Positions 835 to 54,745 of a DNA stretch of 64,000 nt are shown here, piece after piece; position 1 is the first letter of the stretch, and the number at the start of each line of letters is the position of its first letter. The position numbers and the translations under genes were made by a program. The notes beneath the pieces are model-generated. The model saw nothing but the letters and a program-made list of their open reading frames with translations. It did no database searches and had not been told where the DNA came from. Source of the stretch: Candidatus Latescibacterota bacterium (GTDB lineage Bacteria; JAAXHH01); contig JAJEAN010000007.1 in the NCBI GenBank assembly GCA_022822725.1, positions 562,382 to 626,381 on the forward strand. The letters run 5' to 3'.

Positions 835-2415
835 ATGCAAGGACCCCGCGTCGACCGCGTCATTTTCTGGGTCGCACTGCCGCTGATCGCAGGCGTCTCG
901 GTACCGCTGGTGCTGTTCCCCGTCGAAGGAGAAGCCCTGCTGAGCGCGGCCTTCGGCTGGCTGACCCGGATCCTGGGATGGGCCTACCTCTGGTTCACGA
1001 TCGCCGCCTTCGCGCTACTGGTCTACTACGCCCTCGGCAAATACGGCAACGTGCGTTTCGGCGGGCCCGAAGCCAAGCCCGAGTTCTCCCTGATCAGCTG
1101 GATCGCCATGATCTTCTGCGCCGGGATCGGCGCCAGCGTCCTCTACTGGGGCACCATCGAGTGGGCGTATTACTACATGAATCCGCCGTTCGGACTCGAA
1201 CCCCGGTCCGCCGAGGCCACCGAGTGGGCGGCGACCTACGGACTGTTCCACTGGGGATTCACCGCGTGGGCGATCTACTGCATTCCCACGCTGCCCCTCG
1301 CCTACCTCTTCTGGAACCGGCGGCGGCCGGTGCTGCGCATGTCGGCGGCCTGCGAAGGCGTGATCGGCGCGCAGGCGGTACGGAGGCTTCCGGGCAAGTT
1401 CATCGACATGCTGTTCATGTTCGGCCTGCTTGGCGGGGTCGGGACGTCCATCGGTCTCAGCACGCCCATGATCTCGGCGGGACTGTCGGAGATGCTTGGC
1501 GTCGCCAGGGGTTTCTGGCTGGACGCCTCGGTGGTGATAACGCTTGGGGTGATCTTCGGTGTGAGCGTCTACACCGGGTTGCAGCGCGGTATTCGCGTGC
1601 TGAGCAGGTTCAACCTCTGGCTCACCATCGCGCTGCTCGCATTCGTCTTCCTGATGGGACCGACGCTATTCATCATAGACACGATTACCAACAGTATCGG
1701 CCTGCTGATGCAGAACTTCATCAAGATGAGCCTGTACCTGGATCCGATCGCGAAGTGGGAATCGCTGATTTCGGCAACGGGGGAAGGGAGTCCGGTCCCA
1801 CAGGCTACATTCCCGGAGCAGTGGACCGTGTTCTACTGGGCGTGGTGGATCGCCTTCGCGCCGTTCATGGGGCTGTTCGTCGCCCGCATCTCCCGGGGCC
1901 GTACGATCCGCGAACTGATCGGCGCCGAGATCATCGGCGGCGCGATGGGTTGCTGGATGTTCTTCGCGGTACTCGGCAACACGAGCCTGTTCCTGCAGCT
2001 GGAGGGCTCGCAGGATCTCACCGGCCTGGTCGCGCGCAACATGACGCCGGAGGCGATCATTGCCACGGTGGTCGCCGTGGGAGACCGGGTGATCCCCTTC
2101 GCCATACCGCTTCTGCTGGTGTTCGTGACGCTGGCGATCATCTTCGCCGCCACCACGCTGGACTCCGCGTCCTACATCCTGGCGTCGGTGGCCACCCGGG
2201 AACAGGCCGAAGTGCGGGAGCCTGCGCGTTGGCACCGCTGCTTCTGGGCGGTCGTGCTCAGTTCCGTGGCGCTGTCGCTGATGTTCGTGGGGGGAACGGA
2301 AAGCCTGCGGGCGGTCCAGTCGGCTTCCCTGATCGTCGCGCTTCCGCTCATCGCCGTGCTGGTCCTGATGACCCTGTCCTTCATCCGGTGGCTGAGACAG
2401 GATCACGGCTCCTGA
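835..2415 (+). CDS. BCCT family (betaine/carnitine/choline) transporter
   Basis: 526 aa polytopic membrane protein with typical BCCT N-terminal region (WxLxxxxGxxYLW, GxVRFG, aromatic-rich TM segments). Stop lies inside a 20-bp tandem duplication. Confidence 0.9.
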   Translation: MQGPRVDRVIFWVALPLIAGVSVPLVLFPVEGEALLSAAFGWLTRILGWAYLWFTIAAFALLVYYALGKYGNVRFGGPEAKPEFSLISWIAMIFCAGIGASVLYWGTIEWAYYYMNPPFGLEPRSAEATEWAATYGLFHWGFTAWAIYCIPTLPLAYLFWNRRRPVLRMSAACEGVIGAQAVRRLPGKFIDMLFMFGLLGGVGTSIGLSTPMISAGLSEMLGVARGFWLDASVVITLGVIFGVSVYTGLQRGIRVLSRFNLWLTIALLAFVFLMGPTLFIIDTITNSIGLLMQNFIKMSLYLDPIAKWESLISATGEGSPVPQATFPEQWTVFYWAWWIAFAPFMGLFVARISRGRTIRELIGAEIIGGAMGCWMFFAVLGNTSLFLQLEGSQDLTGLVARNMTPEAIIATVVAVGDRVIPFAIPLLLVFVTLAIIFAATTLDSASYILASVATREQAEVREPARWHRCFWAVVLSSVALSLMFVGGTESLRAVQSASLIVALPLIAVLVLMTLSFIRWLRQDHGS

Positions 2416-2436
2416 GACAGGATCACGGCTCCTGAG
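2392..2436. repeat. 20-bp tandem duplication (ctgagacaggatcacggctc x2.25) spanning the BCCT stop codon
   Basis: Direct reading: identical units at 2392-2411 and 2412-2431 plus partial third. Both ORFs 835..2415 and 978..2435 end with the same peptide RQDHGS because of it. Confidence 0.85.
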
Positions 2437-2463
2437 GCGACCTCTTTCCTACCTGCTGCCCGG

Positions 2464-2562
2464 CTACCCGCCTGCCAAACTGCCTACTGCCCGATTGCTA
2501 AACTGCCTTACTACCCGACTGCTAAACTGCCTTACTACCCGCCTGCCAAACTGCCCGACTAC
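2464..2562. repeat. degenerate ~24-bp tandem repeat array (~4 units, gctaaactgccttactacccgact-like) between convergent BCCT and TonB-receptor genes
   Basis: Read directly: ccgattgctaaactgccttactac / ccgactgctaaactgccttactac / ccgcctgccaaactgcccgactac, etc. Confidence 0.8.
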
Positions 2563-5528
2563 CTGAAACTGTACGACACGCCCAGCTTGATCCGACGGCC
2601 CTTGGGATCATGGGTCAGCGCGTCGAAGGCCAGTTCCTGGTTCACATACGGCGGCGGCGCGTCGGCCAGGTTGAACAGCGACAGCGTTGCGACCACGCCG
2701 GTATCGGGAATCCGCCACTGGAAATTCATGTCGAAGGTCAGGAACGGGTCGATCTGTGTCCAGTCTTCTCCCGAAGGCCCCGTGGCGAACCAGTAGTCAC
2801 CGTTCTCGTACGACGAAATGTAGTGACCCCTGGCGATGGCGCTGTAGTCGCTCCAGTGGTATCCGACGGTCGCGTTCATGCGCAGCGGAGGTAGCGGCGG
2901 CGCCAGGGGGTTCGTCGCGTTGAGGAATCCCACGGCTTCGTTCTCGGCGACGAGTTCCACGCCGTTGTGCATGAGCGCTTCGATGGTATAGTCCAGCGTG
3001 TAGCTGCCGTCCAGGTGGGCGTCTATCGCGCCGTTGCCCCACAACTGCCGCGCTCCGATGTGCCAGTCGATCCCCGAGGTCTTGAGACCGGGCCAGTTGA
3101 TGTGGTTGATCCGGATACGTTCCATGTCGGCCGGGGCGCAGCTCCCATCGTTCCGGTTTCCGGGACAGTAGATGCGGTCCTGCACCGCTGCGCGGGTCGA
3201 CGGGTTCACGTAGGCGGCAGCCAGCGCCGCGTCGGGAAGGACGCCGATGGGATTGTTGAAATCGAAATTCCAGTAGTCGACCGTCATCTCGAAACCGGTG
3301 TCGTTCTCGATGATCACGCCCAGGTTATAGGTAAGCGCTTCCTCCGGCTCGAGATCTTCAACGCCCCTGTTCTCGATGGCCTTCCAGGCATCGGTCGGTC
3401 CCACGTAGGCCGTGTAGATGACGACGTCCGTGTTGAGATCGTCCACCGAAGGCGTCCGGAAGGTGGTCTGAACCGTGCCACGCAGGGCCAGGAAGTCGTT
3501 GACCTGCGCCCTCATCGAGATCTTCGGATCCAGGCTGTTCGCGAAACCGTAGTCCTCGAAATGCAACGCGGCCTGGCTGTCAAGCCAGGCCATGGGTTTG
3601 AGCGCCAGCTCGGCGAACACGGCGTGGGTCGTCTGATTGGCTTCGTAAGGATGGATCCCGGACGTGAAGGTAAAGGATCCGGTCTGGATCGCGCAGCTTT
3701 TGTCTCCCGGTATGCGGCAGGGATTGATGGAGAGGTCCCCGGGCGCGTTGGGCAGGGCGGAGACATCGACGCGGCGCAGTTGGTAACCCGTGGCGTAGCT
3801 GGCGACGCCTTCCCTGATCACGCCGTTCAGAATGGTTTCCATCGACAACAGGCTGGCCTCGCTGGTCGTGACGACCTTTTCGTTGATCCAGTCGATCAAA
3901 TCGGGGCTGTGGGCCAGTTCGGAGCGGTAGTTCGGGTTCGGACTGTCCGTCCAGGGGGCGTCCGGCTGCGCGGAATACTGGATGCCGTTGCTGAAGGGAT
4001 TGAAGTACGAGCAGTACCCCGTTCCCGGCACGACACCGCCAGGGATGGTCCCGAGGGCAAGACCCGAAGGCGCACTCGGGTCCGGTACGACCGGGACGCC
4101 GCAATTCGGACCGCCGTACCCGCGGAACGCCAGAAACTTACGGTAGGCATATTCCGCCGGTTGACGTACCGTGCCCTTCGTATCGGAATAAGAGATGCCC
4201 AGGTCATAACTCAGGCTGGACTCGCCGATCGGACCTGTGAGGGAGCCGGCCAGGCGGCGGGTGCGGGACTCCCTGCCCTGGATGCGCCCGGGACCGGCGT
4301 TGCCGACCAGGCGTCCGAAGAAGTACCAGGGCTCGTCGCCGGTAAGGTCCAGCGTTACGCCGTCTGCGTTCGTGTACGTCGGGTTCTGCTCGACGAAGGC
4401 GACCCGGCCAGGATGGTAGACGGGCACCTGCTGTACACCGTCATAGAAGGCGATCGGGGGAAAAGAAGGGGTGGTCTCCCAGTCAGGTACGCGGGCATCG
4501 TGGTAGAGCGCTTCCAGGTGGTAGTTCGCTTCGCCGAACGAGCCGTTCAACTCCGCGAAACCCCTGGTATGCTGGAGTTCCTCGATGATGCTGTCCCAGG
4601 GCTGGTAACGGAAGCGGCACGTGCTGGCGCCCACCTGGTATCCGCCCAGTCCCGAACACCCCGGATCGACGAATCTCGGCTCGCCCGCGAGGATGCTCTC
4701 ATCGGTCACCAGACTATTTCTCGGTATGATGAATGCGCCCGGATTCCCGTACCAGGACCAGCCCCATCCGTAGTTCGGAAAAGGGCGCAGCGCCCAGTCC
4801 CGCTCCTCGGCACGCAGATTCCGGCGGCGCTTGTGTTCCAGGGATATCACCAGGTTTGAATCGCCGACTTTGCCGCCCCAGATCCCACCCAACTGGGCGT
4901 CTCCGGCGGAGTCGAAATAGTCATAGGACACATCCAGCTCGAAACCTTCAAAATTGCTTCTTGTAATGAAGTTGGCGACGCCCGCGATCGCATCCGATCC
5001 ATACACGGCCCCCGCGCCTTCCTTGAGGATATCCATCCGTTCGATGGATATGGACGGAAAGGCGTTCACGTCGACGAACCGGCCCCCCACGAGCCTGCCG
5101 GGCACGTAGGTCTGCCGCCGGCCGTTGAGCAACACCAGGCTTCGCGAGGCGCCGAGGCCGCGGAGGTTGATGTTCGCCACGGTTTCCGGGATGTCTCCCG
5201 ACTGCGCGTTGTACCAGCTGTTGGCTTCGCCGATGACGCCGCTGCTCGCACTCAGGTTCTTGAACAGGTCGACCATGGACGGCGACCCCTGTTCGGCCAG
5301 CGTGGCACGGTCGATGCGTGCGACGGCATAGGGAAGTTCGATCGGGGATTCCCGGACCGCCGTTCCGGTAACGACAATCGCTTCGGCTTCCAGCACGGGC
5401 AGCAGGGAGAGGGAATCCACCGCCGCGTCTTCCTGTTGGTCGGCAAGCGCGGCGGAGCCTGGCATTCCGGCCATGCTGAGCCAGCCGATCACCATTAAGG
5501 CAAACGAACGCCTGTTCGATGTGTACAT
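2559..5528 (-). CDS. TonB-dependent outer-membrane receptor
   Basis: 989 aa. N-terminal signal peptide, plug-like region (TonB-box-like stretch, RIDRATLAEQGSPSMVDLFKNL), long Gly/Tyr/Asn-rich beta-barrel, C-terminal aromatic residue near the end (YSFR). Confidence 0.85.
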   Translation of the reverse strand: MYTSNRRSFALMVIGWLSMAGMPGSAALADQQEDAAVDSLSLLPVLEAEAIVVTGTAVRESPIELPYAVARIDRATLAEQGSPSMVDLFKNLSASSGVIGEANSWYNAQSGDIPETVANINLRGLGASRSLVLLNGRRQTYVPGRLVGGRFVDVNAFPSISIERMDILKEGAGAVYGSDAIAGVANFITRSNFEGFELDVSYDYFDSAGDAQLGGIWGGKVGDSNLVISLEHKRRRNLRAEERDWALRPFPNYGWGWSWYGNPGAFIIPRNSLVTDESILAGEPRFVDPGCSGLGGYQVGASTCRFRYQPWDSIIEELQHTRGFAELNGSFGEANYHLEALYHDARVPDWETTPSFPPIAFYDGVQQVPVYHPGRVAFVEQNPTYTNADGVTLDLTGDEPWYFFGRLVGNAGPGRIQGRESRTRRLAGSLTGPIGESSLSYDLGISYSDTKGTVRQPAEYAYRKFLAFRGYGGPNCGVPVVPDPSAPSGLALGTIPGGVVPGTGYCSYFNPFSNGIQYSAQPDAPWTDSPNPNYRSELAHSPDLIDWINEKVVTTSEASLLSMETILNGVIREGVASYATGYQLRRVDVSALPNAPGDLSINPCRIPGDKSCAIQTGSFTFTSGIHPYEANQTTHAVFAELALKPMAWLDSQAALHFEDYGFANSLDPKISMRAQVNDFLALRGTVQTTFRTPSVDDLNTDVVIYTAYVGPTDAWKAIENRGVEDLEPEEALTYNLGVIIENDTGFEMTVDYWNFDFNNPIGVLPDAALAAAYVNPSTRAAVQDRIYCPGNRNDGSCAPADMERIRINHINWPGLKTSGIDWHIGARQLWGNGAIDAHLDGSYTLDYTIEALMHNGVELVAENEAVGFLNATNPLAPPLPPLRMNATVGYHWSDYSAIARGHYISSYENGDYWFATGPSGEDWTQIDPFLTFDMNFQWRIPDTGVVATLSLFNLADAPPPYVNQELAFDALTHDPKGRRIKLGVSYSFR

Positions 5529-5596
5529 GAAGGCCGCCTTTGGCTATGAGTTTCTTATGATTTTATTGAATTGCGAAATAAAGGAGTTCGAACAGA

Positions 5597-5624
5597 AATA
5601 TACGTAAAAACCCCATTATGTCAA
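5597..5624 (-). promoter_or_regulatory. predicted sigma70-type promoter for the TonB-dependent receptor (TTGACA-N16-TATATT on minus strand)
   Basis: Minus-strand TTGACA at 5619-5624 and TATATT at 5597-5602 with 16-nt spacer, in a 170-bp AT-rich leader ~70 nt upstream of the ATG at 5528. AAAGG RBS 9 nt before start. Confidence 0.4.
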
Positions 5625-5701
5625 GGGAATTAAGGGTTTATGCTTGCGTAAAGAAATATCACATTACACGGAGTAATTGCGTTAACCGGTACGGGGTTCG
5701 G

Positions 5702-6598: not shown

Positions 6599-6620
6599 GT
6601 TTGATATCAGTCCACCCGTT

Positions 6621-6962
6621 TCAGGTTCCGAAGGCCTCGATGGCGCCTTCCAGCGTATCGTGGACGGCGAAAACAGTCGTCAGCTTGGTCATCTGCAGGA
6701 GGCTGCTGACGCTGCGGGTCACGCGGGCGAGCTTCAGATCACCGCCGACCTTCTGCATGCGGGTATAGGCGCGAATGAGCAGCCCCAGCCCCGAACTGTC
6801 GATCCAGTATACTTTGCTCAGATCGAAGATGATCTTCCTTGAACCCTGGTCGGCCAGCCGGTTGATGCGTTCGCTAAGGGCGTCGGTGTCCCTTCCCTCG
6901 GCCATGCGGCCGCTCAGTTCCAGCACCGTGACGTCCCCGTGTTTGATTTCTCTGACTTTCAC
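6621..6962 (-). CDS. STAS-domain anti-sigma-factor antagonist (SpoIIAA-like)
   Basis: 113 aa. VTVLELSGRM...DLSKVYWIDSSGLGLL is the canonical STAS/anti-anti-sigma signature. Confidence 0.75.
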   Translation of the reverse strand: MKVREIKHGDVTVLELSGRMAEGRDTDALSERINRLADQGSRKIIFDLSKVYWIDSSGLGLLIRAYTRMQKVGGDLKLARVTRSVSSLLQMTKLTTVFAVHDTLEGAIEAFGT

Positions 6963-7171
6963 AAAATCCTGCCTCTCTCAAGCGGAACCATCTACACAAT
7001 GCGCTGGCGCTATCGCATGCGAAACAAACGGCTTCAGGAATGATATACCTGTGTATGGCGGGGTACTGACGCTGATAGGGCGATTCGCAGGCCAGGACCG
7101 GAAAGCCGACCGACCGCGGATGCGCTTCCTTCCGCCGGATGCCATCCCTGGGAATGAATCCGGACTTTGTC

Positions 7172-7200
7172 TTGCTGAAATTCGACTTGAAAAATATACT
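7172..7200 (+). promoter_or_regulatory. predicted sigma70-like promoter (TTGCTG-N17-TATACT) upstream of the RibD-C family gene
   Basis: Direct reading; ~110 bp upstream of ATG 7311, in a divergent intergenic region. Confidence 0.3.
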
Positions 7201-7310
7201 GAGATTGTTTAACTGTCAAGACGATTTTCCTGTTGCTTCCGATTAACCTTACGCCGGTCGGAACACCGATCGAAACACCGACCGAAACGTCGACCGAAGC
7301 GCCGAAAATA

Positions 7311-8003: not shown

Positions 8004-8029
8004 CCCCGCAAGATTTCCGGCCGGTAAAA

Positions 8030-8602: not shown

Positions 8603-10942
8603 TCACCGCGGCGTCAGCGTGAGCCGATGCCCCGCGAGTGCTTCCACGGCCTCCCGGCTGAACGCCAGCGGAAGGTAATCGTCGTTCGCCCAGGTGTCCA
8701 GCAGGCTGCCGTAGTAGGGGCTTCCGGGCTGTCCCGACTGGCCCGGCGTGATGATGAAGACCGACCGGTCCCAGTCTTCCGTGTCCAGGATGTGCCGGAA
8801 GCTTACCGACGTGGCGGCGATGGTGCCGAAGCCGCCCGAACGCTCCACGGCCGGCAGGGAGAAGGCATCGGACAGGAGGTGGGTGAAGGGGCTCATCTGC
8901 AGCCGTCCGTACCGCCACTGCCCCCAGTCGTCGCCCAGTTCCGATTTGAGCCGGTCAACGGTCTTGCGGAGGCCGGCTTCCACGAGCGGCTGCCGTTCGT
9001 CTACCGGCGTCTCCGGGTCGTAGGCGGCGGCTTCGGCCTCGCCCCGCCACCGGTACCAGACCGCCGCCCCGGCGCTGTCCCGGTCCAGCACGCCGTTCCA
9101 GTCTGCTACCAGCGCACGGGCCCGTTCGACTTCCGCGTCCTCCGACGCCCAACCCTGAAATGCCGGGATGTCGGCCTCGGCCCGCAGCGAATAGGCGTCC
9201 AGTTGGATGCGCTGGTGGTCCTCGACGGAGTACTTGCGATTGGATTGCAGCAGTTGCTTCATGCGTTCGATCCGGGAGTATTCGACGCCTCGTGCGGAAT
9301 GGAACATGACCGGCCGGCCCGTATAGTCCGGCGGGTGGGAATCGTTATTGGCCGTCCCTACCCAGCCGCGCTGGGGATTGTACTCCCGGGGCAGGTCTTC
9401 CCGGAAGCCTTGCCACTCGAACCGCCCGTCGCCCGGGACCGGCAGCCGGCCGTTCCAGCCGTCGCGGTCCGGCGTGAGGGCCGAGACCTGGAAGGCGATG
9501 TTGCCCTCCACGTCGCCGAAGACCAGGTTGTGCGTGGGTACTTTCCAGAACATGGCCCGTTCGAAGAAGTCCTCCGCGCTCTCCGCCTGGGCCATGCGGA
9601 AGCATCCCAGGTACGGCGCGGTACCGGGTTCGTGGGTGATCGAACGTACGGCATAGACTACGCCGTTCTCAGGGTCTTCGTAAAACACCGGACCGTGCCG
9701 GCTGTACTTGAGCACGATCTCGCGGGGCTCCTCGCCTTTCACCGGGATCTCCTCCGTGATGACGCGCAGGGATTCCCAGCCGTCCCGCCACCGCACCATG
9801 TCGGGCTGGTCCGGGTGCAGTTCCTCCACGTACACGTCGTTCACGTCGACCCCGGCGAAGGTGAATCCCCAGGCGACGCGGTCGTTGTGTCCGGCGTTCA
9901 CGCCCACGAAGGGCGGCTCGCTGGCGCCGATCACGTTCCAGCCCGGGGCGTTCAGATGGGCGTAGTACCGCAGCGAGGGGTTCTCCAGGCGGCGGTGTGG
10001 GTCGTTGACGACCATGACCTGGCCCGTGATGGACAGGGCGCCGCTCACGGCCCAGTTGTTGCTGCCGATCTCGAGCAGTTGCTCTTCGGTGGGCGCCACG
10101 GCCTGGCGGTCCGCGGGTACCAGACCCGTGTAGGGTTCCACGAGTTCCAGCTGCGGCAACCGTCCGGGCACCAGGGGATCTCCCTCCCCTTTGCGCATGG
10201 CGGCTACAATGTCCTCGTGGACGATGTTCACGTCGAGGCCTTCCGGCACGACGAGGTCATCCCAGGGGAGCGGAGCGGCCCGGCGATTGGCCTCCTCGAC
10301 GCCGTGTTCCGCCACGGACCGGGCCAGCCGGATCTCGTCGCCCGCATCGTTCCCCGCGCTCGGGAAGAAGAGCCCGGTCCAGCGCCTCACTACTGTTTCC
10401 TTCGTCCACCGTCCGGGCTGGATGCCCGTGAGCTTGAATTCCACCGGAAGATTATCGGCGTGCGTGTCGATATAGGCGTTGACGCCGTTCGCGTAGGCCG
10501 TGAAGATGCGTTCGCCCTCGGCGTGGTAGCTGGTCCACTCCCGGTCGTCGAAGGGCCCGCGGTACATCATGAGCCGCGTGCGGGCGTCGTAGTCGAAGGC
10601 CTCGGGACCGAAAACCTCCGCGAGGCGGCCTTCCCGCCACCGGCGCCAAAGCTCCATCTGCCACAGGCGGTCCTGGGCCATCACGTAACCCTGGGCGAAA
10701 AAGAGATCGTCCGTGTTCTGCGCGTAGATATGCGGAATGCCGTGGCGGTCGCGGATCACCTCGACAGGCTCCTGCAGGCCGTCCAGCGTCAGCTCGCCCT
10801 CTATCGGTGAAAGGGATGCGCGGGCGAGGGACATGAGCTGTTCGTCGGGATCCACCGGTTCGATCTCCTCGCTGCAGCCCATGACCATCAAGGGAACAAC
10901 GAAAAGCACCGCGCACAGATAGATGAAGTGAGATACTGTCAT
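8603..10942 (-). CDS. penicillin acylase / acyl-homoserine-lactone acylase family Ntn-hydrolase
   Basis: Hallmark DRHGIPHIYA...DLFFAQGYVMAQDRLWQMEL motif; SNNWAVSG (putative beta-subunit N-terminal nucleophile Ser). Likely start at ATG 10942 (lipoprotein-type signal MTVSHFIYLCAVLFVVPLMVMGC, GAGGAG RBS upstream) rather than the ORF-track start 10978. Confidence 0.85.
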   Translation of the reverse strand: MTVSHFIYLCAVLFVVPLMVMGCSEEIEPVDPDEQLMSLARASLSPIEGELTLDGLQEPVEVIRDRHGIPHIYAQNTDDLFFAQGYVMAQDRLWQMELWRRWREGRLAEVFGPEAFDYDARTRLMMYRGPFDDREWTSYHAEGERIFTAYANGVNAYIDTHADNLPVEFKLTGIQPGRWTKETVVRRWTGLFFPSAGNDAGDEIRLARSVAEHGVEEANRRAAPLPWDDLVVPEGLDVNIVHEDIVAAMRKGEGDPLVPGRLPQLELVEPYTGLVPADRQAVAPTEEQLLEIGSNNWAVSGALSITGQVMVVNDPHRRLENPSLRYYAHLNAPGWNVIGASEPPFVGVNAGHNDRVAWGFTFAGVDVNDVYVEELHPDQPDMVRWRDGWESLRVITEEIPVKGEEPREIVLKYSRHGPVFYEDPENGVVYAVRSITHEPGTAPYLGCFRMAQAESAEDFFERAMFWKVPTHNLVFGDVEGNIAFQVSALTPDRDGWNGRLPVPGDGRFEWQGFREDLPREYNPQRGWVGTANNDSHPPDYTGRPVMFHSARGVEYSRIERMKQLLQSNRKYSVEDHQRIQLDAYSLRAEADIPAFQGWASEDAEVERARALVADWNGVLDRDSAGAAVWYRWRGEAEAAAYDPETPVDERQPLVEAGLRKTVDRLKSELGDDWGQWRYGRLQMSPFTHLLSDAFSLPAVERSGGFGTIAATSVSFRHILDTEDWDRSVFIITPGQSGQPGSPYYGSLLDTWANDDYLPLAFSREAVEALAGHRLTLTPR

Positions 10943-11102
10943 GAATGGCTCCTCTTGCTCTCCACTGCCGGATTGCACGATTAAATAGCACGCGCAGCGC
11001 AGCGTTTCGTCCGTTTTGTACTGTCGGAGAATCGTCCGTTATGGTCGAATATGGTCGAATATCATCCTACCATCCGGATGTGTGGTTGTCAAGCAACCCA
11101 GG

Positions 11103-11218
11103 GCCGGATCAGTCCCGCAACCGCGCAGGCGGCCTGGGGGGCCGGGCGACCTGGGCGGCCTGAACATCCCGATGGATGGCGCAGCGGTCGCAACCTGCCT
11201 GCCGGATCAGTCCCGCAA
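11103..11218. repeat. perfect 18-bp direct repeat pair (gccggatcagtcccgcaa at 11103-11120 and 11201-11218); second copy contains the stop codon of the downstream oxidoreductase gene
   Basis: Direct reading; a 10-bp tandem (atggtcgaat x2) lies at 11041-11060. Confidence 0.8.
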
Positions 11219-12766: not shown

Positions 12767-12783
12767 CACAGATCGGAGAGCGA

Positions 12784-16363: not shown

Positions 16364-16679
16364 ACTCAGTAGACTTAGCTCTTAACGAGAATCCGCGCAA
16401 GGAATCTCCTTTTTGACGACGAAGGTAACCGGGTATTCCAAGATCACGGTGTTCTTGTTGCGATTTTTGACTCGCACGCAATCTAGTGTAAGAATGATAA
16501 ACTTGTCTGACTTCATATTACCTTTGGCAGGCGGATGCGGTAGACGTGAAAGTTTTGCATGAGCAACAAGAGATTTGTGTTTATAAGGATTGGTCGATTG
16601 AGTACATATATGGCGATTAAATCGTAGCAAATCATGCCGACACAAATGTTGAACATTCATAGCAGAAGGCGTTGAATCG

Positions 16680-16886
16680 ATGCGACAAGTTGTTCTTTAT
16701 CCTGGAGAGGACGGCTTTTGGATTGCAGAATGTCCAAGTCTGGCAGGTTGCATAAGTCAGGGCGAATCTCGGCAAGCGGCGATTGAAAGAATCAAGGAGG
16801 CTATCGAAGCATACGTCGAGGCTTTGGAAGACGATGACCTTCCAGTTCCTGAGGACAAATTCGAGGCCTTGGTCGTAGCCGTATGA
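16680..16886 (+). CDS. hicB: type II toxin-antitoxin system HicB family antitoxin (UPF0150)
   Basis: 68 aa. MRQVVLYPGEDGFWIAECPSLAGCISQGESRQAAIERIKEAIEAYVEAL matches the HicB consensus closely. Confidence 0.85.
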   Translation: MRQVVLYPGEDGFWIAECPSLAGCISQGESRQAAIERIKEAIEAYVEALEDDDLPVPEDKFEALVVAV

Positions 16887-16945
16887 ATGTTCTGCCCGCA
16901 ATTTCAGGGCGCGAATGTGTCAAAGCACTTGCCAAAGTAAAGTAA
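16883..16945 (+). pseudogene. truncated HicA-family toxin remnant (20 codons: MNVLPAISGRECVKALAKVK then stop)
   Basis: ATGA-overlapping ORF after hicB whose N-terminus matches the HicA N-terminal consensus (LP-x-SGRE-VK-L) but terminates after 20 aa. No continuation recognisable in other frames; the PhyH gene begins 34 bp later. Confidence 0.5.
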
Positions 16946-16978
16946 CGGGAATCAGTCACTGTAAAGGACCCACCCCCC

Positions 16979-17885: not shown

Positions 17886-17929
17886 CGCGGTCGCACGGTC
17901 ACGGCCGCACGGTCACGGCCGCACGATGG
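17886..17929. repeat. 14-bp tandem repeat (cgcacggtcacggc x2.7) spanning the stop codon of the enolase-superfamily gene
   Basis: Direct reading. Confidence 0.8.
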
Positions 17930-20697: not shown

Positions 20698-20973
20698 TTT
20701 ACGCTCCTTAATCCTGATTCAGTTGTAGATACATTGTATACACGCAAGCCGCTGGTCAGGACCATCACGGGGCTGTCTACCGATCTGACCGAAACGCCGA
20801 TTGCCGATCCCGTTTACTGATCCCGTTTACAGATCCCGGTATCCATACGCCCTGCAACTAACAAATCCATTCAGCTCTCTGCAATCCTTTTTCGCGAGTA
20901 CAGCGTCGCGGCGCCATGAGGGGCGTCGTCCATCCCAAATTCAGATCCGCAGCGCCATGCGGGGCACCATTCA

Positions 20974-23153: not shown

Positions 23154-25232
23154 TCAGTCGATGTAGAACTGCTCGGGGAAACTCGTCGCCGGGCCGGCGA
23201 TGGCCCAGGGGCCGAGAATGCCCGAGTCGGGTACGTTATGGAAGTTGTTCTTCACTATGACGGGCCTGGGCGTGCGGGCCGCGGTGCCCAGGTGGAAGGG
23301 CCCGTGCTCGATATGGATCCGCACGGCGTCCTGTACCAGGCGGTGCCGGGCTTCCAGGTCCTGCTCGTGTTTGATCCGGTCGTAGATGTCGAGCAGCTCG
23401 ATCATGACGCCCGTAGGCGCTTCGCCCCTTTCGCCGCCTGATTCGTACCATTTGCCCACCTGGGGGTGCCAGTACTTTCCGGAAGTCGGAAACACCCAGT
23501 CCGGATAGGTGAACAGGTCCATTTCCGCCTCGCCGTGGAGATGGGCGGTGAACTCGCCGAGGTCGCGGCGCAGCTTGAGTTCGGCTCCGGGCGGCGTGTA
23601 TACGATGACCTCCATCCCCAGTACCCGCCAACCCTCGGCCACGATCAGGGCGACGTCGTTTTCATGGGCGATGTGCGCCGCCGCCGGCGCGTCCAGCACG
23701 AGGGTAAGCCGCTGGCCGTCGGGACGAAGCCGGTATCCCTCGTCGTCGCGGCGGGTGAGCCCCATCTCGTCCAGCAACCGGTTCGCCTGCCGCAGGTCGA
23801 AGTCCGCGTCGGTGGCTTTCCACAGGTCGAATAGTCGTGCACCTTCCGGATCCAGGAAATGCCAGCCCTCCTCGCTCACGGTGGCGGCCTGGGGTTTCGC
23901 AAGGCCCTTGAAGGCGACGGCGTTGCACTTCTCGCGGTCGATGGCCGCGGCGAGCGCCTTGCGGAACCGCTGGTCGCGGATCAGGCCGCGGAGGACCGGG
24001 TCGTTGTCCGACCAGTTCAGGTTGATCGCCGGATCCGATCCGGAAGCGCTCTCCCATAACTTGACGCGGTAATCTCCCTTTTCCCGGCTTTCCATGAACA
24101 GGGAAAAGTCCCGGAGTTCAAGATCGCGGAACTGGCAGTCCACCTCGCCGGCCAGCACCCTGAGGACCCGGATCTGGGCTTCGGGAACCAGCGTGGTGAC
24201 CACCTGGTCGATGTAGGGCAGCTGCCGGCCGTGGTCGTCCACGACGTAGTAATAGGGGTTCCGCTCCAGGATCACCCGGAAGCCGCCCTTTTCGATGCGG
24301 GTGATCGTCCACGGCCACAGGGAGGGCTGTTCGGGATTGCGCTGGGGCAGCCTGTGCTTCTCGTACAGGACGAAATCGTCCACGTCGTCGTTGTGGTCCG
24401 GGTGGAACTGCTTCATATAGTGCTCCGGCACGTTGTACTCTTCGCTCCACCAGAACCCGGTCGCCAGCCACAAGGGCACCAGCCAGTTGGGTCCGGCGAA
24501 CTTCATGACGATGGTGTAGTCGTCCGGGGTCTCGACCTCCATGGGCTTGCCGTCCACGAGGCACCACACGGGCGGCGGGTACCGGTGGCGGTCGTCGAGG
24601 CACAGGTCGTACCAGGCGCGGAAGGATGCCGAGGTATAGGGATGGCCGTCGGACCACCGTACGCCCTCGCGCAGCTTGAGCGTCAGTTCCGTTCCGTCCT
24701 CGTTGAACGTCCACGATTCCGCCAGGCCCGGTTCGAGCCCCGTGGTCCTCCGGTTCCATCGGATCAGCGGGGCGTAGCCGGCGATCATCTTCCAGGTGCC
24801 GAGATCGGTGTTGTTGTGAAACTGGCGCCAGGTCCCGCCGTAGATCCCGGGCCCATCGTATCCCTCGTAGTCGTGTCTGGCCACAAGCGGGTTGGCCGGG
24901 ATCCGCTCCTGCAGGGGCGGCAGGGCGCCCGCCGCCACCCGGGCGGCCAGTTGGGGCGCCTCCTTGCGGGAAAGATCCAGCGAACGGATCGCCGGAGATT
25001 CCGTTGCGGATTCGCCGCCGGCGCAGGCCAGCACACCGACGCAGGCCAGCATACCGACGCAGGCCAGCATACCGCTGCGAGCCAGCATCCCGAAGCGAGC
25101 CAACATCCCGGCGCAGGCCAGCATACCGCCGCGAGCCAGCATATCGCCGCTAGCCAGCATACCGCTGCGAGTCGTGCCGAAGCAAGCCGCAAGGGATACG
25201 CGTGCCGGGGTTTTGGGAAGGTGTCTGTTCAT
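23154..25232 (-). CDS. ABC transporter substrate-binding protein, family 5 (peptide/nickel)
   Basis: The 995-aa ORF 23154..26141 runs into the upstream ATPase in another frame. Plausible start is ATG 25232 (MNRHLPKTPARVSLAA...). Family-5 SBP core follows. N-terminal region contains an 18-bp tandem repeat. Confidence 0.8.
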   Translation of the reverse strand: MNRHLPKTPARVSLAACFGTTRSGMLASGDMLARGGMLACAGMLARFGMLARSGMLACVGMLACVGVLACAGGESATESPAIRSLDLSRKEAPQLAARVAAGALPPLQERIPANPLVARHDYEGYDGPGIYGGTWRQFHNNTDLGTWKMIAGYAPLIRWNRRTTGLEPGLAESWTFNEDGTELTLKLREGVRWSDGHPYTSASFRAWYDLCLDDRHRYPPPVWCLVDGKPMEVETPDDYTIVMKFAGPNWLVPLWLATGFWWSEEYNVPEHYMKQFHPDHNDDVDDFVLYEKHRLPQRNPEQPSLWPWTITRIEKGGFRVILERNPYYYVVDDHGRQLPYIDQVVTTLVPEAQIRVLRVLAGEVDCQFRDLELRDFSLFMESREKGDYRVKLWESASGSDPAINLNWSDNDPVLRGLIRDQRFRKALAAAIDREKCNAVAFKGLAKPQAATVSEEGWHFLDPEGARLFDLWKATDADFDLRQANRLLDEMGLTRRDDEGYRLRPDGQRLTLVLDAPAAAHIAHENDVALIVAEGWRVLGMEVIVYTPPGAELKLRRDLGEFTAHLHGEAEMDLFTYPDWVFPTSGKYWHPQVGKWYESGGERGEAPTGVMIELLDIYDRIKHEQDLEARHRLVQDAVRIHIEHGPFHLGTAARTPRPVIVKNNFHNVPDSGILGPWAIAGPATSFPEQFYID
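25027..25170. repeat. 18-bp tandem repeat, 8 copies (gccagcataccgacgcag-like), in frame inside the signal-peptide region of the SBP gene
   Basis: Direct reading; encodes (G-M-L-A-C/R-A/S)n on the minus strand. Confidence 0.9.
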
Positions 25233-27388: not shown

Positions 27389-27418
27389 ATCTACAGTGCT
27401 GAGGATCTACAGTGCTGA
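27389..27418. promoter_or_regulatory. direct repeat atctacagtgctga x2 (period 16) ~30 bp upstream of the aminotransferase start; candidate regulator-binding site in a divergent promoter region
   Basis: Direct reading; GAAGGAG RBS at 27436-27442 precedes ATG 27449. Confidence 0.3.
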
Positions 27419-27448
27419 ATTTACCCAGGTTACCTGAAGGAGTCGAAT

Positions 27449-32671: not shown

Positions 32672-32831
32672 CCTGCGTCAGGGGTGTTCGGCTACGCGTG
32701 AAGTGCGGAAGGCACCGTCTACTGCGGGAGGCACCGTCTACATATACTAAGAGGCCCGAAAACGAAAATCGGTTCGTTTTTTTTCGTATCGTTCCGACCC
32801 ACCGTTAATATACCGGATCAACGCGTCCTCG

Positions 32832-34175: not shown

Positions 34176-34272
34176 GGCGTACCTCTTTCGCTGATGTCGG
34201 GATGTGAATGTGATGTTAAAGGCACTGAAATGAGATATGATTAATCTACTGCGCTTCGTGCGTTAAACAAGA

Positions 34273-34385
34273 CCAAAGGCCACCCGGAGACCACCCAAAG
34301 GCCACCCGGTGACCACCCCAAGACCACCGGCCGCGATGTTCGAATCCGGCCGCGATGTTCGAATCCGGCCCGGCTGTTCGAAACC
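34273..34385. repeat. two adjacent tandem repeats in the intergenic region (22-bp ccaaaggccacccggagaccac x2.5; 19-bp ggccgcgatgttcgaatcc x3)
   Basis: Direct reading. Confidence 0.8.
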
Positions 34386-34460
34386 CAGTTTTGGTTGTCA
34401 CTCGCGATGGCCCGGTTTATCTTGGATGCTCGCATTCACCAGGGTTGAAATGGAGTTCTC

Positions 34461-36493: not shown

Positions 36494-36505
36494 CTCGTGC
36501 GGACC

Positions 36506-36592
36506 AGTAATGAACCGGGCCTGAAGTGAACCGGCCCGTAATGTACCGGCCCGTAATGAACCGGCCCAGAAACGAACCGGGCCTGCAGTTGA
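36506..36592. repeat. degenerate ~15-bp tandem repeat array (gaaccggccc-core, ~5 units) in intergenic region
   Basis: Direct reading. Confidence 0.75.
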
Positions 36593-42169: not shown

Positions 42170-43423
42170 ATGGAACCGGAACAGCTTCAGTCGGTCCGTA
42201 GTCGGATCACCCACACCCTCTTCGTCACCCAGGCCCTCTTCGGCGCCACCCAGGTCGCGGCCTTCACGGTGGTGCCCATCCTGGCGGCGCAGTTGTCCGA
42301 CAGCGAGCGCATGACGGGCGTGCCCATGACCATCGCCTTTCTCGCGCGCTCGATCAGCGCCTTCCCCTTCGGCTGGATCATGGACCGCCTGGGTCGCCGC
42401 GCCGGGCTTACGGCCGGATACCTGTCGTCCCTGATCGCCGCCGCGGCCAGTTTCCTCAGCGTGGCCGTCCACTCCTTCGCGGGATTCTGCGTCGCGTCCT
42501 TTTTCGCCGGTATGGCGCGCAGCTCCAGCGAGCAGGCGCGGTTCATCGGCGCTGAAATCTATCCCGAGTCGGAACGGGCGCGCATCATCGGACGCATCGT
42601 GTCCGCCGGCACCATAAGCGCTATCGGCGGCGCCATGATGGTGGCGCCCGCCGGGATCTGGATCGCGCAGTACGGGTATCCGCCCATGTCGGGACCCTTC
42701 TTCGTCGGCGTGGGCCTGAGCCTGGCGGCCGTCCTGCTTACCCTCTTCCTGGTCCGCCCCGACCCGCTCGACCTCGCCCGGCGCATCAAACCTTCCAACG
42801 AATCGGAAATCGACGCGTCGACCATGCGCCCCGTGCGGGAGATCCTCCGCAACGTGCACGTCCGGTACGGGATTGCGGCCATGGTGATCGGCCAGTTCGT
42901 CATGACGCTGCTCATGGTGATTACGCCCCTGCACATGAGCCATCACGACCATGGCACGTGGCTGATCTCGTGGGTCATCATGGCGCACGCCATCGGCATG
43001 TTCGGCGTTTCCGGCATCACCGGGCGGCTGATCATACGGTGGGGGCAGCACGCTATCGTGAAGTGGGGGGTGCTCATCCTGGTCGTGTCCTGCGTGATTA
43101 CCCCGGTTTCGCCCCGGTTCATCCCCCTGACGATCGCCCTCTTCCTCCTCGGCCTGGGGTGGAACTTCTGTTTCATCGCCGGCTCTTCCCTGCTTTCCAA
43201 CGCGCTCGCGCCCCTGGAACGCGGCCGCGTGCAGGGCGTCAACGAGATGTTCATCGCGCTGTCGGCGAGTTCGGCCAGCCTGGTGACGGGGTTTCTCTTC
43301 GAATCGGGCGGCATGCTGCTGTTGGCGGTGATCGGAGCGGTATGCTCCGTCTGCCTGGGGTTCTGCAGCCTGGTTTATGCAAGGAGAACCGGGCAGCGGA
43401 CGCTGGCGGAGGCGGCCGGTTGA
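42170..43423 (+). CDS. MFS transporter
   Basis: 12-TM organisation, MFS loop motif (GWIMDRLGRRAGL). Confidence 0.8.
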   Translation: MEPEQLQSVRSRITHTLFVTQALFGATQVAAFTVVPILAAQLSDSERMTGVPMTIAFLARSISAFPFGWIMDRLGRRAGLTAGYLSSLIAAAASFLSVAVHSFAGFCVASFFAGMARSSSEQARFIGAEIYPESERARIIGRIVSAGTISAIGGAMMVAPAGIWIAQYGYPPMSGPFFVGVGLSLAAVLLTLFLVRPDPLDLARRIKPSNESEIDASTMRPVREILRNVHVRYGIAAMVIGQFVMTLLMVITPLHMSHHDHGTWLISWVIMAHAIGMFGVSGITGRLIIRWGQHAIVKWGVLILVVSCVITPVSPRFIPLTIALFLLGLGWNFCFIAGSSLLSNALAPLERGRVQGVNEMFIALSASSASLVTGFLFESGGMLLLAVIGAVCSVCLGFCSLVYARRTGQRTLAEAAG

Positions 43424-44765: not shown

Positions 44766-46940
<2,175 letters not shown>

Positions 46941-46965
46941 TGATCCCAACCGTCGGATATGCGCC

Positions 46966-48051: not shown

Positions 48052-48095
48052 CGCGAGCAAATAGGTAATGCGAACTGATGGGAAGAGCGTAAGTT

Positions 48096-48890: not shown

Positions 48891-48893
48891 ACT

Positions 48894-49787
48894 ATGAAAC
48901 TGGACTATCTGCTCATATCCGCGACGGAACTGGAACAGGAACCGGTCCGGGCGCGGATGGAAATCTCCGGGACGGACCATCCCCTTGCCCGGCCCTGGCA
49001 CCTGGGTGCATTGTGCGGGAAGCCGGTACTCCTGATCGAGGGCGGCGTGGGACTGGTCAACACGGCCGCGGCCCTGACCCTTGCGCTGACTCGCCATGAT
49101 CCCGACATGATCCTGCAATTCGGGGTAGGCGGCGCATACGTGCGGCCCGGTCTCAATGTGGGTGACCTTGCCATTGCTACGGAGGAATGCTATGGCGACA
49201 CGGGGGTTCTGGCACCGGAAGGCTGGATCGACCTGGAAGGGATGGGTTTTCCCACGGTTCCCACCCGGACCGACGCCTATGGGCTAACCGACGCCTATGG
49301 ACAAACCGACCCCCACGGGCAAATCGAGCATTCCGGGCAGACCGGGCATTCCGGGCAGACCGGGCACTCTGGGCAGACCGGGCATTCCGGGCAGACCGGA
49401 CCGGCAGGACGGCCGCCCAGGGAACCGCTGTACAACCGGATACCGCTCGATGACGCGCGCGCGGAGCACATCCGGCAATGCCTGGAATCCGGACTGGAGG
49501 GAACCGCGGCGCACAAAATCATGGCTGGTCCCTTTGTCACCGTGCAGCAATGCAGCGGCGTACAGTCGGTCGGAGATACCATGGCTGCCCGCTACGATGG
49601 GATATGCGAGAACATGGAAGGCGCGGCGGCGGCCCACGTTGCCGTCGCCAACGGGGTCCCCTTCGTGGAGATACGCGGCATCAGCAACCGGGTGGTCGAC
49701 CGGGACCTGTCCGGGTGGAACCTGCCCCTGGCGATCAGGCGCTGTCATCAAGCGATCGAACTGATCGTAAAACAAGGGACCCGCTGA
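48894..49787 (+). CDS. mqnB: futalosine hydrolase (MqnB; PNP/UDP phosphorylase family) with in-frame repeat insertion
   Basis: PNP_UDP_1-type N-terminus, adjacent mqnD. The 297-aa length is inflated by a tandem-repeat-encoded insert (TDAYG x2, HSGQTG x4). Confidence 0.65.
   Translation: MKLDYLLISATELEQEPVRARMEISGTDHPLARPWHLGALCGKPVLLIEGGVGLVNTAAALTLALTRHDPDMILQFGVGGAYVRPGLNVGDLAIATEECYGDTGVLAPEGWIDLEGMGFPTVPTRTDAYGLTDAYGQTDPHGQIEHSGQTGHSGQTGHSGQTGHSGQTGPAGRPPREPLYNRIPLDDARAEHIRQCLESGLEGTAAHKIMAGPFVTVQQCSGVQSVGDTMAARYDGICENMEGAAAAHVAVANGVPFVEIRGISNRVVDRDLSGWNLPLAIRRCHQAIELIVKQGTR
49329..49400. repeat. 18-bp tandem repeat x4 (cattccgggcagaccggg) in frame inside mqnB, preceded by a 15-bp tandem (accgacgcctatggg x2) at 49269-49300
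   Basis: Direct reading. Confidence 0.9.
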
Positions 49788-49878
49788 TGAACCATATGGT
49801 CCTGGTGCATCCTTTTCCAGGTAGTGCAAGCAATGCTGGTCCTGTGCGCGGACGGACGTAACGCAGACGGATGGTACC

Positions 49879-50706: not shown

Positions 50707-50824
50707 TGCAGATTGCCGAATGACGGCCCGGTCGAAACACGGCCCGGTCGAGAAGCGGCCATCTCCGAACCACATCCCGGAAGGACCGGAAAGCCGATAA
50801 CCCCTAGCACGGAGAGGAAACACC

Positions 50825-51637: not shown

Positions 51638-51655
51638 TCTTTACCGGCGGCATGC

Positions 51656-52474: not shown

Positions 52475-52491
52475 GCGTCGATACCCCTTTC

Positions 52492-54630
52492 TCAATAAGA
52501 CTCCCAGCGATGCGGCCGGTCCGGGAACCAGGCCAGGTCTACTCCCATGGCGGCCAGCTGCCAGAAGAGATAGGCGAGCAATATGCCAATAAACATCCTT
52601 CGGACCAGATGGTAAAGCGTCGGACCGCCGATGCGGAACACGATGGCCTGAACCAGCCAGGCCAGGAAGATCGTCAGGAAGGCGTTCCGAACCGGGGCGG
52701 ACATGACTACCACCATGCCGATGGGGTGGAGCGGCCACCAGGGAAGGAGAAACCGCCCGGCCAGGAGCACGATCATCATGACGACGCCGCTCCCGAAAAA
52801 CAGGATTTCGAGGTCGCTGATCCGCGTCGCGTTGTTGACCCAGGTCACGATCAGATCGTAGAACCGGATACCCCGGTCCGTGCCCAGGTCGGTCCGCAGG
52901 TTCTGCGCGCCAGAGGTGTTTCCGGCGTAAATCACGTAGCCGATGGAGGCCGCGGCACTCAGGCAGAAGGCGGCGGCCACTCCGGCGAAGAGGTGCCTGG
53001 AAGAGATCCCGCTCCCGGGACCCCGCAAATCCGGTAACCTGCCGGTCCGGGCTTGCCGGTGCTGGCGCCAGCGGGATTTCAGCCAGGCCACGTGGGACGT
53101 GCCGATCATGGTAAAGGTGCGCCAGTTGCGCGCGAACCCGTTGGCCATGCCCAGGGCCGTGAGGTCGCCGTGCCCGATCCGGGCGGACCCCACGATGGCG
53201 ATGGAGAACTGGTGGCTGTTGATGGGCAGGTCGAGTGTCACCACGCCCGTTTCCGCGACGACGCGGGCCAGGGCGATGTAGAAGATAAAGAGCAAGGCGA
53301 TGAACAGCGCCATGATCGGCAGAGACATCCCGGCGGCGTACAGCCAGCAAATGATGAAGAGTAGACCGAGCAGGAAGCCGAAGACGGCCGTTCGGTAAGA
53401 GAACAGCTCTTCCGCATCGTCCAGTTCGTCTTGCCGGCCCAGGGCATGTCGCCATACGGCCACGAGGTGCCGACGGGCCATCCACAGGCCGAAAAGGACG
53501 AAGGTAACCAGGCCGGCTATGGATTGAATGCCGGCAAGACCGCCATGGATAATGGTGCCGGAGGTGGATCCTACACCGAGCAGGTTGAGCGATCCCTCCT
53601 GAAGCACGTAGAAGACGAGAAACAGCCACATGCTGAGCAGCACGTCCCGGTTGACGTAGATCAGCAGGCAAAAGACGAACACGTTCATGCGGAAGATTAG
53701 CCCGGGAAAGGCGGGATCGAGGGTAAGCACCCGGGAGTGTTCGGCCATGATCGGGACCGGAGGCCAAACGCCCCAGAAAGATATGATGTTCCAGATCATG
53801 ACCAGGGACATGGCCGCCGCGCCGGTCAGGATCCATCGATTGCCGTTTTTCCCATTTCCGCCTTTCCCATTGTCGCCACCCACCCCAGCGCTGCCACCCT
53901 CCCCGACGCCGCCTTCCTTTCTGCCGTCTTCCCCAGTGCCGCCTTCCTTTCCGCCGCCGCCCAGCGAAATCAGGTGCAGGCCCACTTCACCCAGCGGGAA
54001 CTGAAGCCGCTCGTGTTCGACCCACTGTTTCCGGAGCATGACGACGATGCACGCGCCGACGAAGAGCAGGACCAGGATGAAGGCACCCCACCAGAACAGG
54101 GGGGACAGCCATGCACCCCAGGGAATCGACTGGCCGGACTGGAGTCCCTCGTAGAATACCCGCGCCGCCGCCCGGTCGCTCAGGACCAGCCATTCGGGCA
54201 GATAGGGAAAGAAGATGGTTTCCCAGCTGTTCTCCGGCGAAGAGAAGTAGAACGGCGCGGTGATCACAACGAGCAGGTATTTGGTCATGGCCTGGTCGGG
54301 CACCGTGGAAGCGATCCACCCCATGGCGAAAACCATGATCAGTTCATAGAACGTGAGCGCCGACGCGGGACGAATCCGCGCGACCAGGACATTGGGCAGC
54401 AGCACGCAAAAGAGAAAGGGAACGAGGAACACCGGGGGAAGGTGGGTCGCCGCCGGTTCGTAGCCGATATGATTGGCGCTGTATTCCCCTGTGAAACCGA
54501 TGAAAACCGAAAGCGCGGCCCCGATGAGGAAGGCCCGGAAGGTCCGGAAGGCCCGAAAGGTCCGGAAGCGCTGGAGGAAGGCCGGTGCGATCAATGTCAT
54601 CTCACGGTAGGAGGGGCGTGACCGGTCCAC
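52492..54630 (-). CDS. large polytopic membrane protein of unknown function with Gly/Lys-rich extramembrane loop
   Basis: ~14 predicted TM segments; N-terminal RFRTFRAF repeat from 9/18-bp tandem duplication; loop GGGGKEGGTGEDGRKEGGVGEGGSAGVGGDNGKGGNGKNGN; no family recognised. Alternative start at 54600 (MTLIAPAF). Confidence 0.6.
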   Translation of the reverse strand: MDRSRPSYREMTLIAPAFLQRFRTFRAFRTFRAFLIGAALSVFIGFTGEYSANHIGYEPAATHLPPVFLVPFLFCVLLPNVLVARIRPASALTFYELIMVFAMGWIASTVPDQAMTKYLLVVITAPFYFSSPENSWETIFFPYLPEWLVLSDRAAARVFYEGLQSGQSIPWGAWLSPLFWWGAFILVLLFVGACIVVMLRKQWVEHERLQFPLGEVGLHLISLGGGGKEGGTGEDGRKEGGVGEGGSAGVGGDNGKGGNGKNGNRWILTGAAAMSLVMIWNIISFWGVWPPVPIMAEHSRVLTLDPAFPGLIFRMNVFVFCLLIYVNRDVLLSMWLFLVFYVLQEGSLNLLGVGSTSGTIIHGGLAGIQSIAGLVTFVLFGLWMARRHLVAVWRHALGRQDELDDAEELFSYRTAVFGFLLGLLFIICWLYAAGMSLPIMALFIALLFIFYIALARVVAETGVVTLDLPINSHQFSIAIVGSARIGHGDLTALGMANGFARNWRTFTMIGTSHVAWLKSRWRQHRQARTGRLPDLRGPGSGISSRHLFAGVAAAFCLSAAASIGYVIYAGNTSGAQNLRTDLGTDRGIRFYDLIVTWVNNATRISDLEILFFGSGVVMMIVLLAGRFLLPWWPLHPIGMVVVMSAPVRNAFLTIFLAWLVQAIVFRIGGPTLYHLVRRMFIGILLAYLFWQLAAMGVDLAWFPDRPHRWESY

Positions 54631-54652
54631 AAAGCCAAACGCGACCGGTCAG

Positions 54653-54745
54653 GTGCCGGCCACCACGTGCCGGCCACCAAGTGCCGGCCACCACGTGCCC
54701 ACCACGTGCCGGCCGGTACGTGCCGGCCACCAAGTGCCCACCGTC
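54653..54745. repeat. 14-bp tandem repeat array (gtgccggccaccac-like, ~6-7 units) in the region upstream of the membrane-protein gene
   Basis: Direct reading. Confidence 0.85.

Follow-up and report, generated by a model that had tools for sequence, protein, structure and literature searches.

Short tandem arrays are scattered through the 64,000-nucleotide stretch of contig JAJEAN010000007.1 analysed here (assembly GCA_022822725.1, Candidatus Latescibacterota bacterium; hereafter the window), both between genes and in frame within them. The best explanation, to which we assign a probability of roughly 80%, is that these arrays are independent, young, minisatellite-like local tandem duplications of the variable-number tandem repeat (VNTR) type, which gain and lose units, pass through a filter of selection and represent an ordinary phenomenon. 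Whole units are gained and lost between closely related genomes, arrays can be traced to single-copy ancestral sequence, and the arrays found inside genes preserve the reading frame. The arrays are a well-documented case of a known phenomenon, and their density is moderately unusual.

Arrays were detected with Tandem Repeats Finder (TRF) at a main cut-off score of at least 50, over a span of ~80 kb of the 2.5-Mb contig comprising the window and both flanks. The window contains 21 merged arrays at this cut-off, totalling 1475 bp, with periods of 9–54 and copy numbers of 1.9–10.6. In comparison, 100 dinucleotide-preserving shuffles scored in the same way yielded 0.49 ± 0.70 arrays, with a maximum of three. 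The initial annotation, made from the letters of the window, had listed fifteen arrays. TRF recovered 14 of them with coordinates within a few bases; the fifteenth (27389–27418) is sub-threshold for TRF, yet readable in the sequence as ATCTACAGTGCTGA(GG) x1.9. Additional arrays that had been reported in the FtsH tail and at the N-terminus of a membrane protein were also confirmed by TRF.

The control set consisted of 80 loci (1.39 Mb) from diverse bacteria, obtained through an FtsH-seeded scan of species-representative genomes. The best FtsH matches in that scan reached 52–60% identity, i.e. no close relative was among them, and the loci were used as controls only. The window has 3.28 arrays per 10 kb versus 0.91 across the 80 control loci and 1.14 in the 52 control loci with a GC content of at least 0.58. 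A similar density in random high-GC genomes, which the initial annotation had named as the observation that would count against it, was thus not found, the window exceeding the GC-rich controls ~3-fold. Restricted to periods of 9–30 bp, the window holds 18 arrays per 64 kb versus 6.1 in the controls. It ranks second of 52 when set among the 51 controls with a length of 15 kb or more, whose median is 0.46 per 10 kb. With one crude gene caller applied to all sequences, the density of noncoding arrays per 10 kb was 11.4 in the window, 1.32 in the controls and 4.08 in seven relatives; the excess over controls amounts to ~9-fold in noncoding versus ~2-fold in coding DNA. An exact-match regular-expression count of 8–30-bp duplications did not set the window apart from the controls (8 versus 6.3 per 64 kb). 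This count also takes in short-unit runs, and the period classes from TRF were therefore preferred.

On a gene map assembled from gene calls, intergenic DNA makes up 7.7% of the window, and 13.9% of its bases lie inside arrays versus 1.65% of coding bases. Among spacers of at least 90 bp, 10 or 11 of 23 bear an array; by type these are two of three convergent, three of eight divergent and six of 12 tandem spacers. Selection on the survival of arrays is visible as a pattern in their periods, which are divisible by three in all ten coding arrays versus three of 13 intergenic ones (score of at least 50; hand-computed Fisher p ~2.5e-4). The coding arrays are located in tails, loops and termini, in one enzyme-domain insertion and in one signal peptide. 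Nested periods (8/24, 9/18/27, 11/22, 15/30 and 18/54), which are typical of stepwise array growth, were seen by TRF. Further, TRF coordinates show an extra partial copy of 3–10 bp in six of the nine near-perfect arrays of about two copies, consistent with a microhomology origin.

The units of different arrays share no motif beyond chance, the longest common k-mer being 9 against a null mean of 9.1, so that the earlier statement that the arrays are not one dispersed repeat family is upheld. No inverted repeats of the kind that bound miniature inverted-repeat transposable elements (MITEs) flank the arrays, although the array at 54645–54776 is internally quasi-palindromic, and nothing consistent emerged when the arrays were inspected for strand or GC-skew asymmetry. 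Rfam searches of the window at gathering and permissive thresholds returned zero RNA families, and no tRNA genes were found in it. Dispersed families such as repetitive extragenic palindromic (REP) elements or MITEs, as well as clustered regularly interspaced short palindromic repeats (CRISPR), were rejected on the basis of unrelated units, contiguous copies and this lack of an Rfam match.

Comparison of strains shows the arrays changing by whole units. An independent assembly of the same population (the 950-kb ENA metagenome scaffold KELL22-1_SAMN22237345 scaffold_2) overlaps the window over ~61 kb and differs from it by one single-nucleotide polymorphism and one 22-bp insertion or deletion (indel), which corresponds to one unit of the array at 34273–34328 (3.5 copies in the ENA assembly versus 2.5 in the window). 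A second point of comparison is a strain ~98% identical to the window (SRR22586460; L084 and L096). Over 13.4 kb compared with L084, the alignment opens 12 gaps, every one of them in the divergent spacer 34176–34460 or in the array at 36500. They reduce to three events. Two are in arrays, namely a net loss of 19 bp, the length of one unit of the 19-mer at 34327–34382, and a minor rearrangement of the 15-mer at 36500; the third is a 1-bp intergenic indel. Overall, ~400 substitutions and five indel events separate this strain from the window, the remaining two events being a 98-bp segment at 11103–11218 and a second 1-bp intergenic indel. Three of the five are inside arrays or flanked by direct repeats.

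The same comparisons document recent births. Five arrays are traceable to single-copy sequence in relatives. The 10-mer (11040) and 12-mer (7254) arrays are confined to the window and the 98% strain and are single-copy at 95% and 88% identity. In the relative L087, there is one copy each of the 19-mer (32704) and the 15-mer (36500), and the 22-mer of 34273–34328 is partial. Seven of the intergenic array sites were compared with relatives; the 19-mer at 34327 is the one shared array, and this within the closest subclade only. At this orthologous site there are ~3 copies in the window, ~2 in L084 and ~5.5 in L087, and the array is missing in L088 and L089.

Where homologous positions do carry repeats in several genomes, the repeats themselves differ. 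FtsH of the window falls in a cluster, formed at 90% identity, in which the named members are metagenome-assembled genomes of Gemmatimonadota; within this one cluster the acidic FtsH tails have differing repeats, and the proteins are 709–779 aa long. The N-terminus of the SBP_bac_5 protein contains an 18-mer x8 in the window and 27- and 39-mers in L089. Similarly, at a homologous spot in the leader of the extracytoplasmic-function (ECF) sigma and FtsH genes (GTAGAnGGTGC...), the window has a 19-mer x2, and L089 (9184–9300) has independently acquired a 14-mer x2 and a 43-mer x2; this spot may be a mutational hot spot. In L097 (~4712–4790), an independent tandem duplication of ~45 bp is found at the same GFO_IDH gene end that bears the insertion in the window. 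The same tolerant sites have thus been hit repeatedly and independently in different genomes.

These observations suggest a simple sequence of steps. Short stretches of existing local sequence were duplicated head to tail, most likely by replication slippage or microhomology-mediated misalignment, and the resulting arrays then expand or contract by whole units or blocks of units. A slipped-strand or recombination origin has been described for bacterial tandem repeats (PMC3899988). Selection, visible as a pattern, acts as the final filter: spacers tolerate any period, and genes keep only periods divisible by three, at tolerant sites. These are the acidic tail of FtsH, the C-terminal tail of the peptidase, insertions in an enzyme domain and in a membrane protein, the N-terminus of a protein and the signal peptide of a lipoprotein. 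The initial annotation had proposed a genome-wide propensity for slipped-strand duplication or, alternatively, a mutator-like background. The part of this proposal that concerns local head-to-tail duplication agrees with the unit-sized indels and with a density above that of high-GC controls; the mutator background is not supported, as discussed below.

Several findings weigh against the explanation by ordinary local duplication, or at least against extending it to a raised rate. Density is uneven: three further arrays lie within the 7.4 kb before the window start, and TRF found no array with a score of at least 50 from ~55 kb of the window to 8.6 kb past its end, a tract of ~18 kb. In samples of ~20 kb, the density in close relatives lies between 0.45 and 4.5 arrays per 10 kb, and seven relatives pooled give 1.8 per 10 kb. 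Given this patchiness and the ten-fold spread among close relatives, a stable lineage-wide raised rate is not demonstrated. Further, the slippage step is deduced rather than observed, and unequal recombination could give identical unit-length changes. The 22-bp difference between the two assemblies could in principle be a choice made by the assembler instead of a population variant. Finally, the 98-bp insertion at 11103–11218 is not a simple tandem copy of adjacent DNA; its 80-bp core is unlike its neighbours.

The excess over controls possibly stems from a raised duplication rate or from weak purging in a host-associated population, and the data cannot separate the two. Weak purifying selection or drift, with near-neutral spacer expansions persisting longer at an unremarkable rate of duplication, is a possible though somewhat doubtful account of the density. 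The excess is mainly noncoding, and arrays fill spacers in which they are probably neutral, the convergent one at 2416–2558 being an example; the sample names of the relatives also hint at sponge microbiome studies, an unconfirmed link of our own making. But the genome is compact with its small intergenic share, the arrays are young and turn over within 2–5% divergence, unlike sequences that persist for long, and L094, 88% identical to the window, has a normal density. Weak purging in any case adds to the explanation by local duplication and does not exclude it. The converse idea, that the subclade, perhaps sponge-associated, has a heritable raised rate of 10–25-bp tandem duplication, possibly because a single-strand exonuclease, or a component of the replisome that normally keeps misalignment in check, has been lost or altered, appears unlikely. 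A mutator background in the sense of mutS/mutL loss or an error-prone polymerase is very improbable. It would account for the raised array density and for nothing else that was seen. Homopolymers of at least 7 nt number one in the window versus 6.5 per 64 kb in the controls; both they and runs of di- and trinucleotides fall below the levels of controls and shuffles; and TRF found no array with a period below 6 in the window. The ~400 substitutions between close strains are accompanied by just two 1-bp indels. The excess or instability of homopolymers and 1–4-bp microsatellites that is the signature of mismatch-repair deficiency is thus lacking. Mismatch repair is in addition inefficient on loops larger than ~3 nt, so that its loss would not target units of 9–24 bp (PMC4060949).

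A functional role has to be weighed for the intergenic arrays, which the initial annotation suggested could act as transcription-factor direct repeats. They might be operators of this type or contingency loci that tune adjacent promoters by copy number; several sit near conserved promoter-like blocks, the 19-mer at 34327–34382, whose unit contains TTCGAA, occupies the same site in three genomes (the window, L084 and L087), and copy number varies inside an apparently single population. As a general explanation, this is decidedly unlikely. Arrays are as frequent in convergent spacers (two of three), where no promoter is expected, as in divergent ones, which argues against a general reading as transcription-factor repeats. 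In all four aligned spacers, no array falls between the -35 and -10 elements, and relatives lack the arrays or have others in their place; the promoter blocks, assigned solely by consensus match and conservation, are conserved. The 19-mer itself is missing from two relatives, the coding arrays never shift the frame and the units have no motif in common. That the arrays are assembly artefacts, i.e. chimeric joins or collapsed or expanded repeats, is a possibility we regard as next to negligible. It is true that one 22-bp unit differs between two assemblies and that Logan contigs terminate inside two arrays (L085 at 34280 and 46860, L084 at 46868), but such ends are expected of k-mer assemblers. 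Every other array is reproduced base for base, at 100% identity, by two or more further assemblies (the ENA scaffold; Logan contigs from SRR16351688), which makes the chimeric origin that the initial annotation had asked to be checked very unlikely. A 150-bp read or a read pair is longer than any of the arrays, reading frames stay open through the coding arrays, and relatives on multi-megabase contigs, with names suggesting long-read assemblers, have similar arrays.

Local duplication followed by selection places the arrays alongside the bacterial VNTRs or minisatellites used in multilocus VNTR analysis (MLVA) of Xanthomonas, Mycobacterium and Burkholderia. Both have head-to-tail units of ~9–24 bp, whole-unit differences between strains, positions that are intergenic or in frame within tolerant parts of proteins, units unique to each locus and an origin by slipped strands or recombination (PMC3899988). 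The copies in the window are contiguous, vary by whole units and derive from local single-copy sequence. The window differs in its high density, ~3 times that of high-GC controls, and in having 14% of its intergenic DNA in arrays. It differs also in its host, placed here in an uncultured Gemmatimonadota lineage, for which a literature search on tandem repeats in sponge Gemmatimonadota found no description of such arrays. An extreme intergenic excess of 6–11-bp tandem repeats has been reported for Methanococcus voltae, M. aeolicus and Natrialba magadii (Huang & Mrazek 2014, PMC4060949). In these archaeal genomes, as in the window, longer-unit repeats are over-represented between genes and not inside them, and 1–3-bp repeats are suppressed (PMC4060949). 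The archaea belong to other phyla, however, the units in the window are mostly 10–24 bp, and the comparison is qualitative. Contingency loci, i.e. the phase-variable simple sequence repeats of Neisseria and Haemophilus, also form hypermutable tracts near or in genes with copy-number heterogeneity within a population. Their units of 1–7 bp shift the frame or the -35/-10 spacing, whereas the coding periods in the window are divisible by three and its arrays lie outside core promoter spacers. The arrays were not classified as phase-variation loci on these grounds (ten of ten coding periods; four aligned spacers). They were not classified as transcription-factor direct-repeat operators or iterons either, since unit conservation at orthologous promoters was found for just the 34327 19-mer of the seven sites.

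Within genes, an 18-mer of 8.2 copies lies at 25018–25164 (minus strand), where the lipobox in the signal peptide of an SBP_bac_5 lipoprotein has been amplified in frame into eight GMLAC[AV] units, some with the Cys mutated to Arg. All eight units offer a start codon in frame, ATG in the first seven and GTG in the last, which leaves the true start of the protein ambiguous. Its relatives have an ordinary MKK...GLLAC|GG signal peptide. The acidic C-terminal tail of FtsH is encoded by an 18-mer x9.5 with a 54-mer higher order (29892–30062, minus), and an 18-mer x2.0 lies in frame in an MFS_1 transporter gene (42207–42242, plus). Past the end of the Peptidase_M3 domain (residue 685 of 724), a 9-mer x7.8 at 46821–46893 (plus) encodes a (PGG)n tail. 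A near-identical 9-mer unit (GCGGACCAA) was seen in this peptidase tail (46822–46891) and in L088 (19853–19930), there between two permease genes; the two arrays of this kind occupy unrelated positions in the related genomes. Two adjoining 18-mer arrays (x3.3 and x4.7) at 49269–49399 (plus) encode TDAYGQ and TGHSGQ repeats inserted inside the PNP_UDP_1 match (residues ~120–173) of a PNP_UDP_1-family protein. Three sites, all on the minus strand, affect the DUF6785/DUF6784 membrane protein: a 21-mer x2.1 in frame (52947–52990), 15/30-mer arrays forming a Gly-rich loop that interrupts the DUF6785 domain match (53839–53958), and a 9/18-mer x2.3–4.6 encoding RTFRAF repeats at the N-terminus (54528–54568).

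Between genes, a 20-mer x2.2 (2392–2436), its copies 100% identical, runs across the stop codon of a BCCT transporter gene and leaves the C-terminus of the protein unaltered. It is followed by a 24-mer x4.2 with an 8-mer sub-period (2464–2563), which occupies the convergent spacer between the BCCT gene and a TonB-dependent receptor gene. Nearly all of this spacer (2416–2558) is repeats in the window, and L094 has unrelated, non-repetitive sequence there. A 12-mer x3 (7254–7298) lies in the divergent RibD_C/STAS spacer, ~40 nt upstream of a conserved TTGACA-N17-TATATT block, and a 10-mer x2.3 (11040–11062) is placed directly downstream of a conserved TTGACA-N17-TAGGAT block, before a penicillin-amidase gene. 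The strain-specific 98-bp insertion at 11103–11218 has exact 18-bp direct repeats on both sides, which include the GFO_IDH stop codon, and holds a 9/17-mer array (11128–11162). A 14-mer x2.7 (17888–17925) sits in a convergent spacer and overlaps the 3' end of an MR_MLE gene; a 13-mer x2.5 (20806–20838) lies in the OppC/adh_short spacer, in which relatives have other arrays. The array under the TRF score threshold, a 16-mer x1.9 (27390–27420), is in a divergent spacer upstream of an aminotransferase gene. A 19-mer x2.0 (32704–32741) belongs to the leader of the ECF-sigma/FtsH genes, and a 22-mer x2.5 with an 11-mer sub-period (34273–34328) is positioned between divergent promoter blocks, adjoining the intergenic 19-mer x2.9 of TTCGAA-bearing units at 34327–34382. 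At 36500–36589, a 15/30-mer x4.8 lies in a spacer that measures 133 bp in the window versus ~50 bp in relatives. Finally, a 16-mer x2.4 (50723–50760) occupies the VitK2_biosynth/Peptidase_M55 spacer, and a 14-mer x6.4 followed by another 14-mer x2.6 (54645–54776), both of quasi-palindromic units (CACGTG, GCCGGC), lies between the end of an Na_H_antiporter gene and the start of a membrane-protein gene.

Between near-identical strains of this lineage, indels have their main hotspots in the arrays, which are therefore usable as strain markers. They will break k-mer assemblies, as the Logan contigs that stop inside two of them illustrate, and they inflate or disrupt gene calls, as seen in start-site differences for RibD_C and DSBA and in precomputed Pfam hits that are missing for repeat-bearing proteins. 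The window illustrates how mutation and selection jointly shape the sites at which tandem duplications survive. Were a raised heritable rate true, much of the novelty in regulation and in protein tails would come from the arrays, the signal peptide with its eightfold lipobox being an example. A search for the responsible repair or replication gene would be justified if a genome-wide survey showed the subclade to be an outlier in density. The gene content of the window comprises sulfatases, a BCCT transporter, many GFO_IDH oxidoreductases, PhyH dioxygenases, GH172 and peptide ABC transporters. Together with the sample names KELL22, ROBB21 and PANK22, it suggests what we take to be a sponge-associated Gemmatimonadota symbiont, an assumption that is unconfirmed.

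A few observations concern other parts of the window and its relatives. The largest intergenic region (16364–16978, 615 bp) is without a tandem array, an Rfam match or a called gene. In the penicillin-amidase gene, a clustered multi-nucleotide substitution that keeps the length (9292–9299) distinguishes the window from both the 98% and the 95% strains; BLAST renders it as four compensating 1-bp gaps. Two genes of relatives on multi-megabase contigs, an Na/Ala symporter in L087 (7851–9193) and an APH kinase in L088 (12439–13106), are each broken into two open reading frames, and these are either pseudogenes or frameshift errors of long-read assembly. Upstream of the STAS gene (6621–6962), a leader of ~240 nt (6963–7230, minus strand) follows the TTGACA-N17-TATATT block. 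It had no Rfam match and almost no covariation, with one compensatory pair in the predicted fold. The leader is nearly invariant in nine relatives that are 88–98% identical overall, with an internal deletion of ~84 nt in L100, and could be a structured leader or a small open reading frame.

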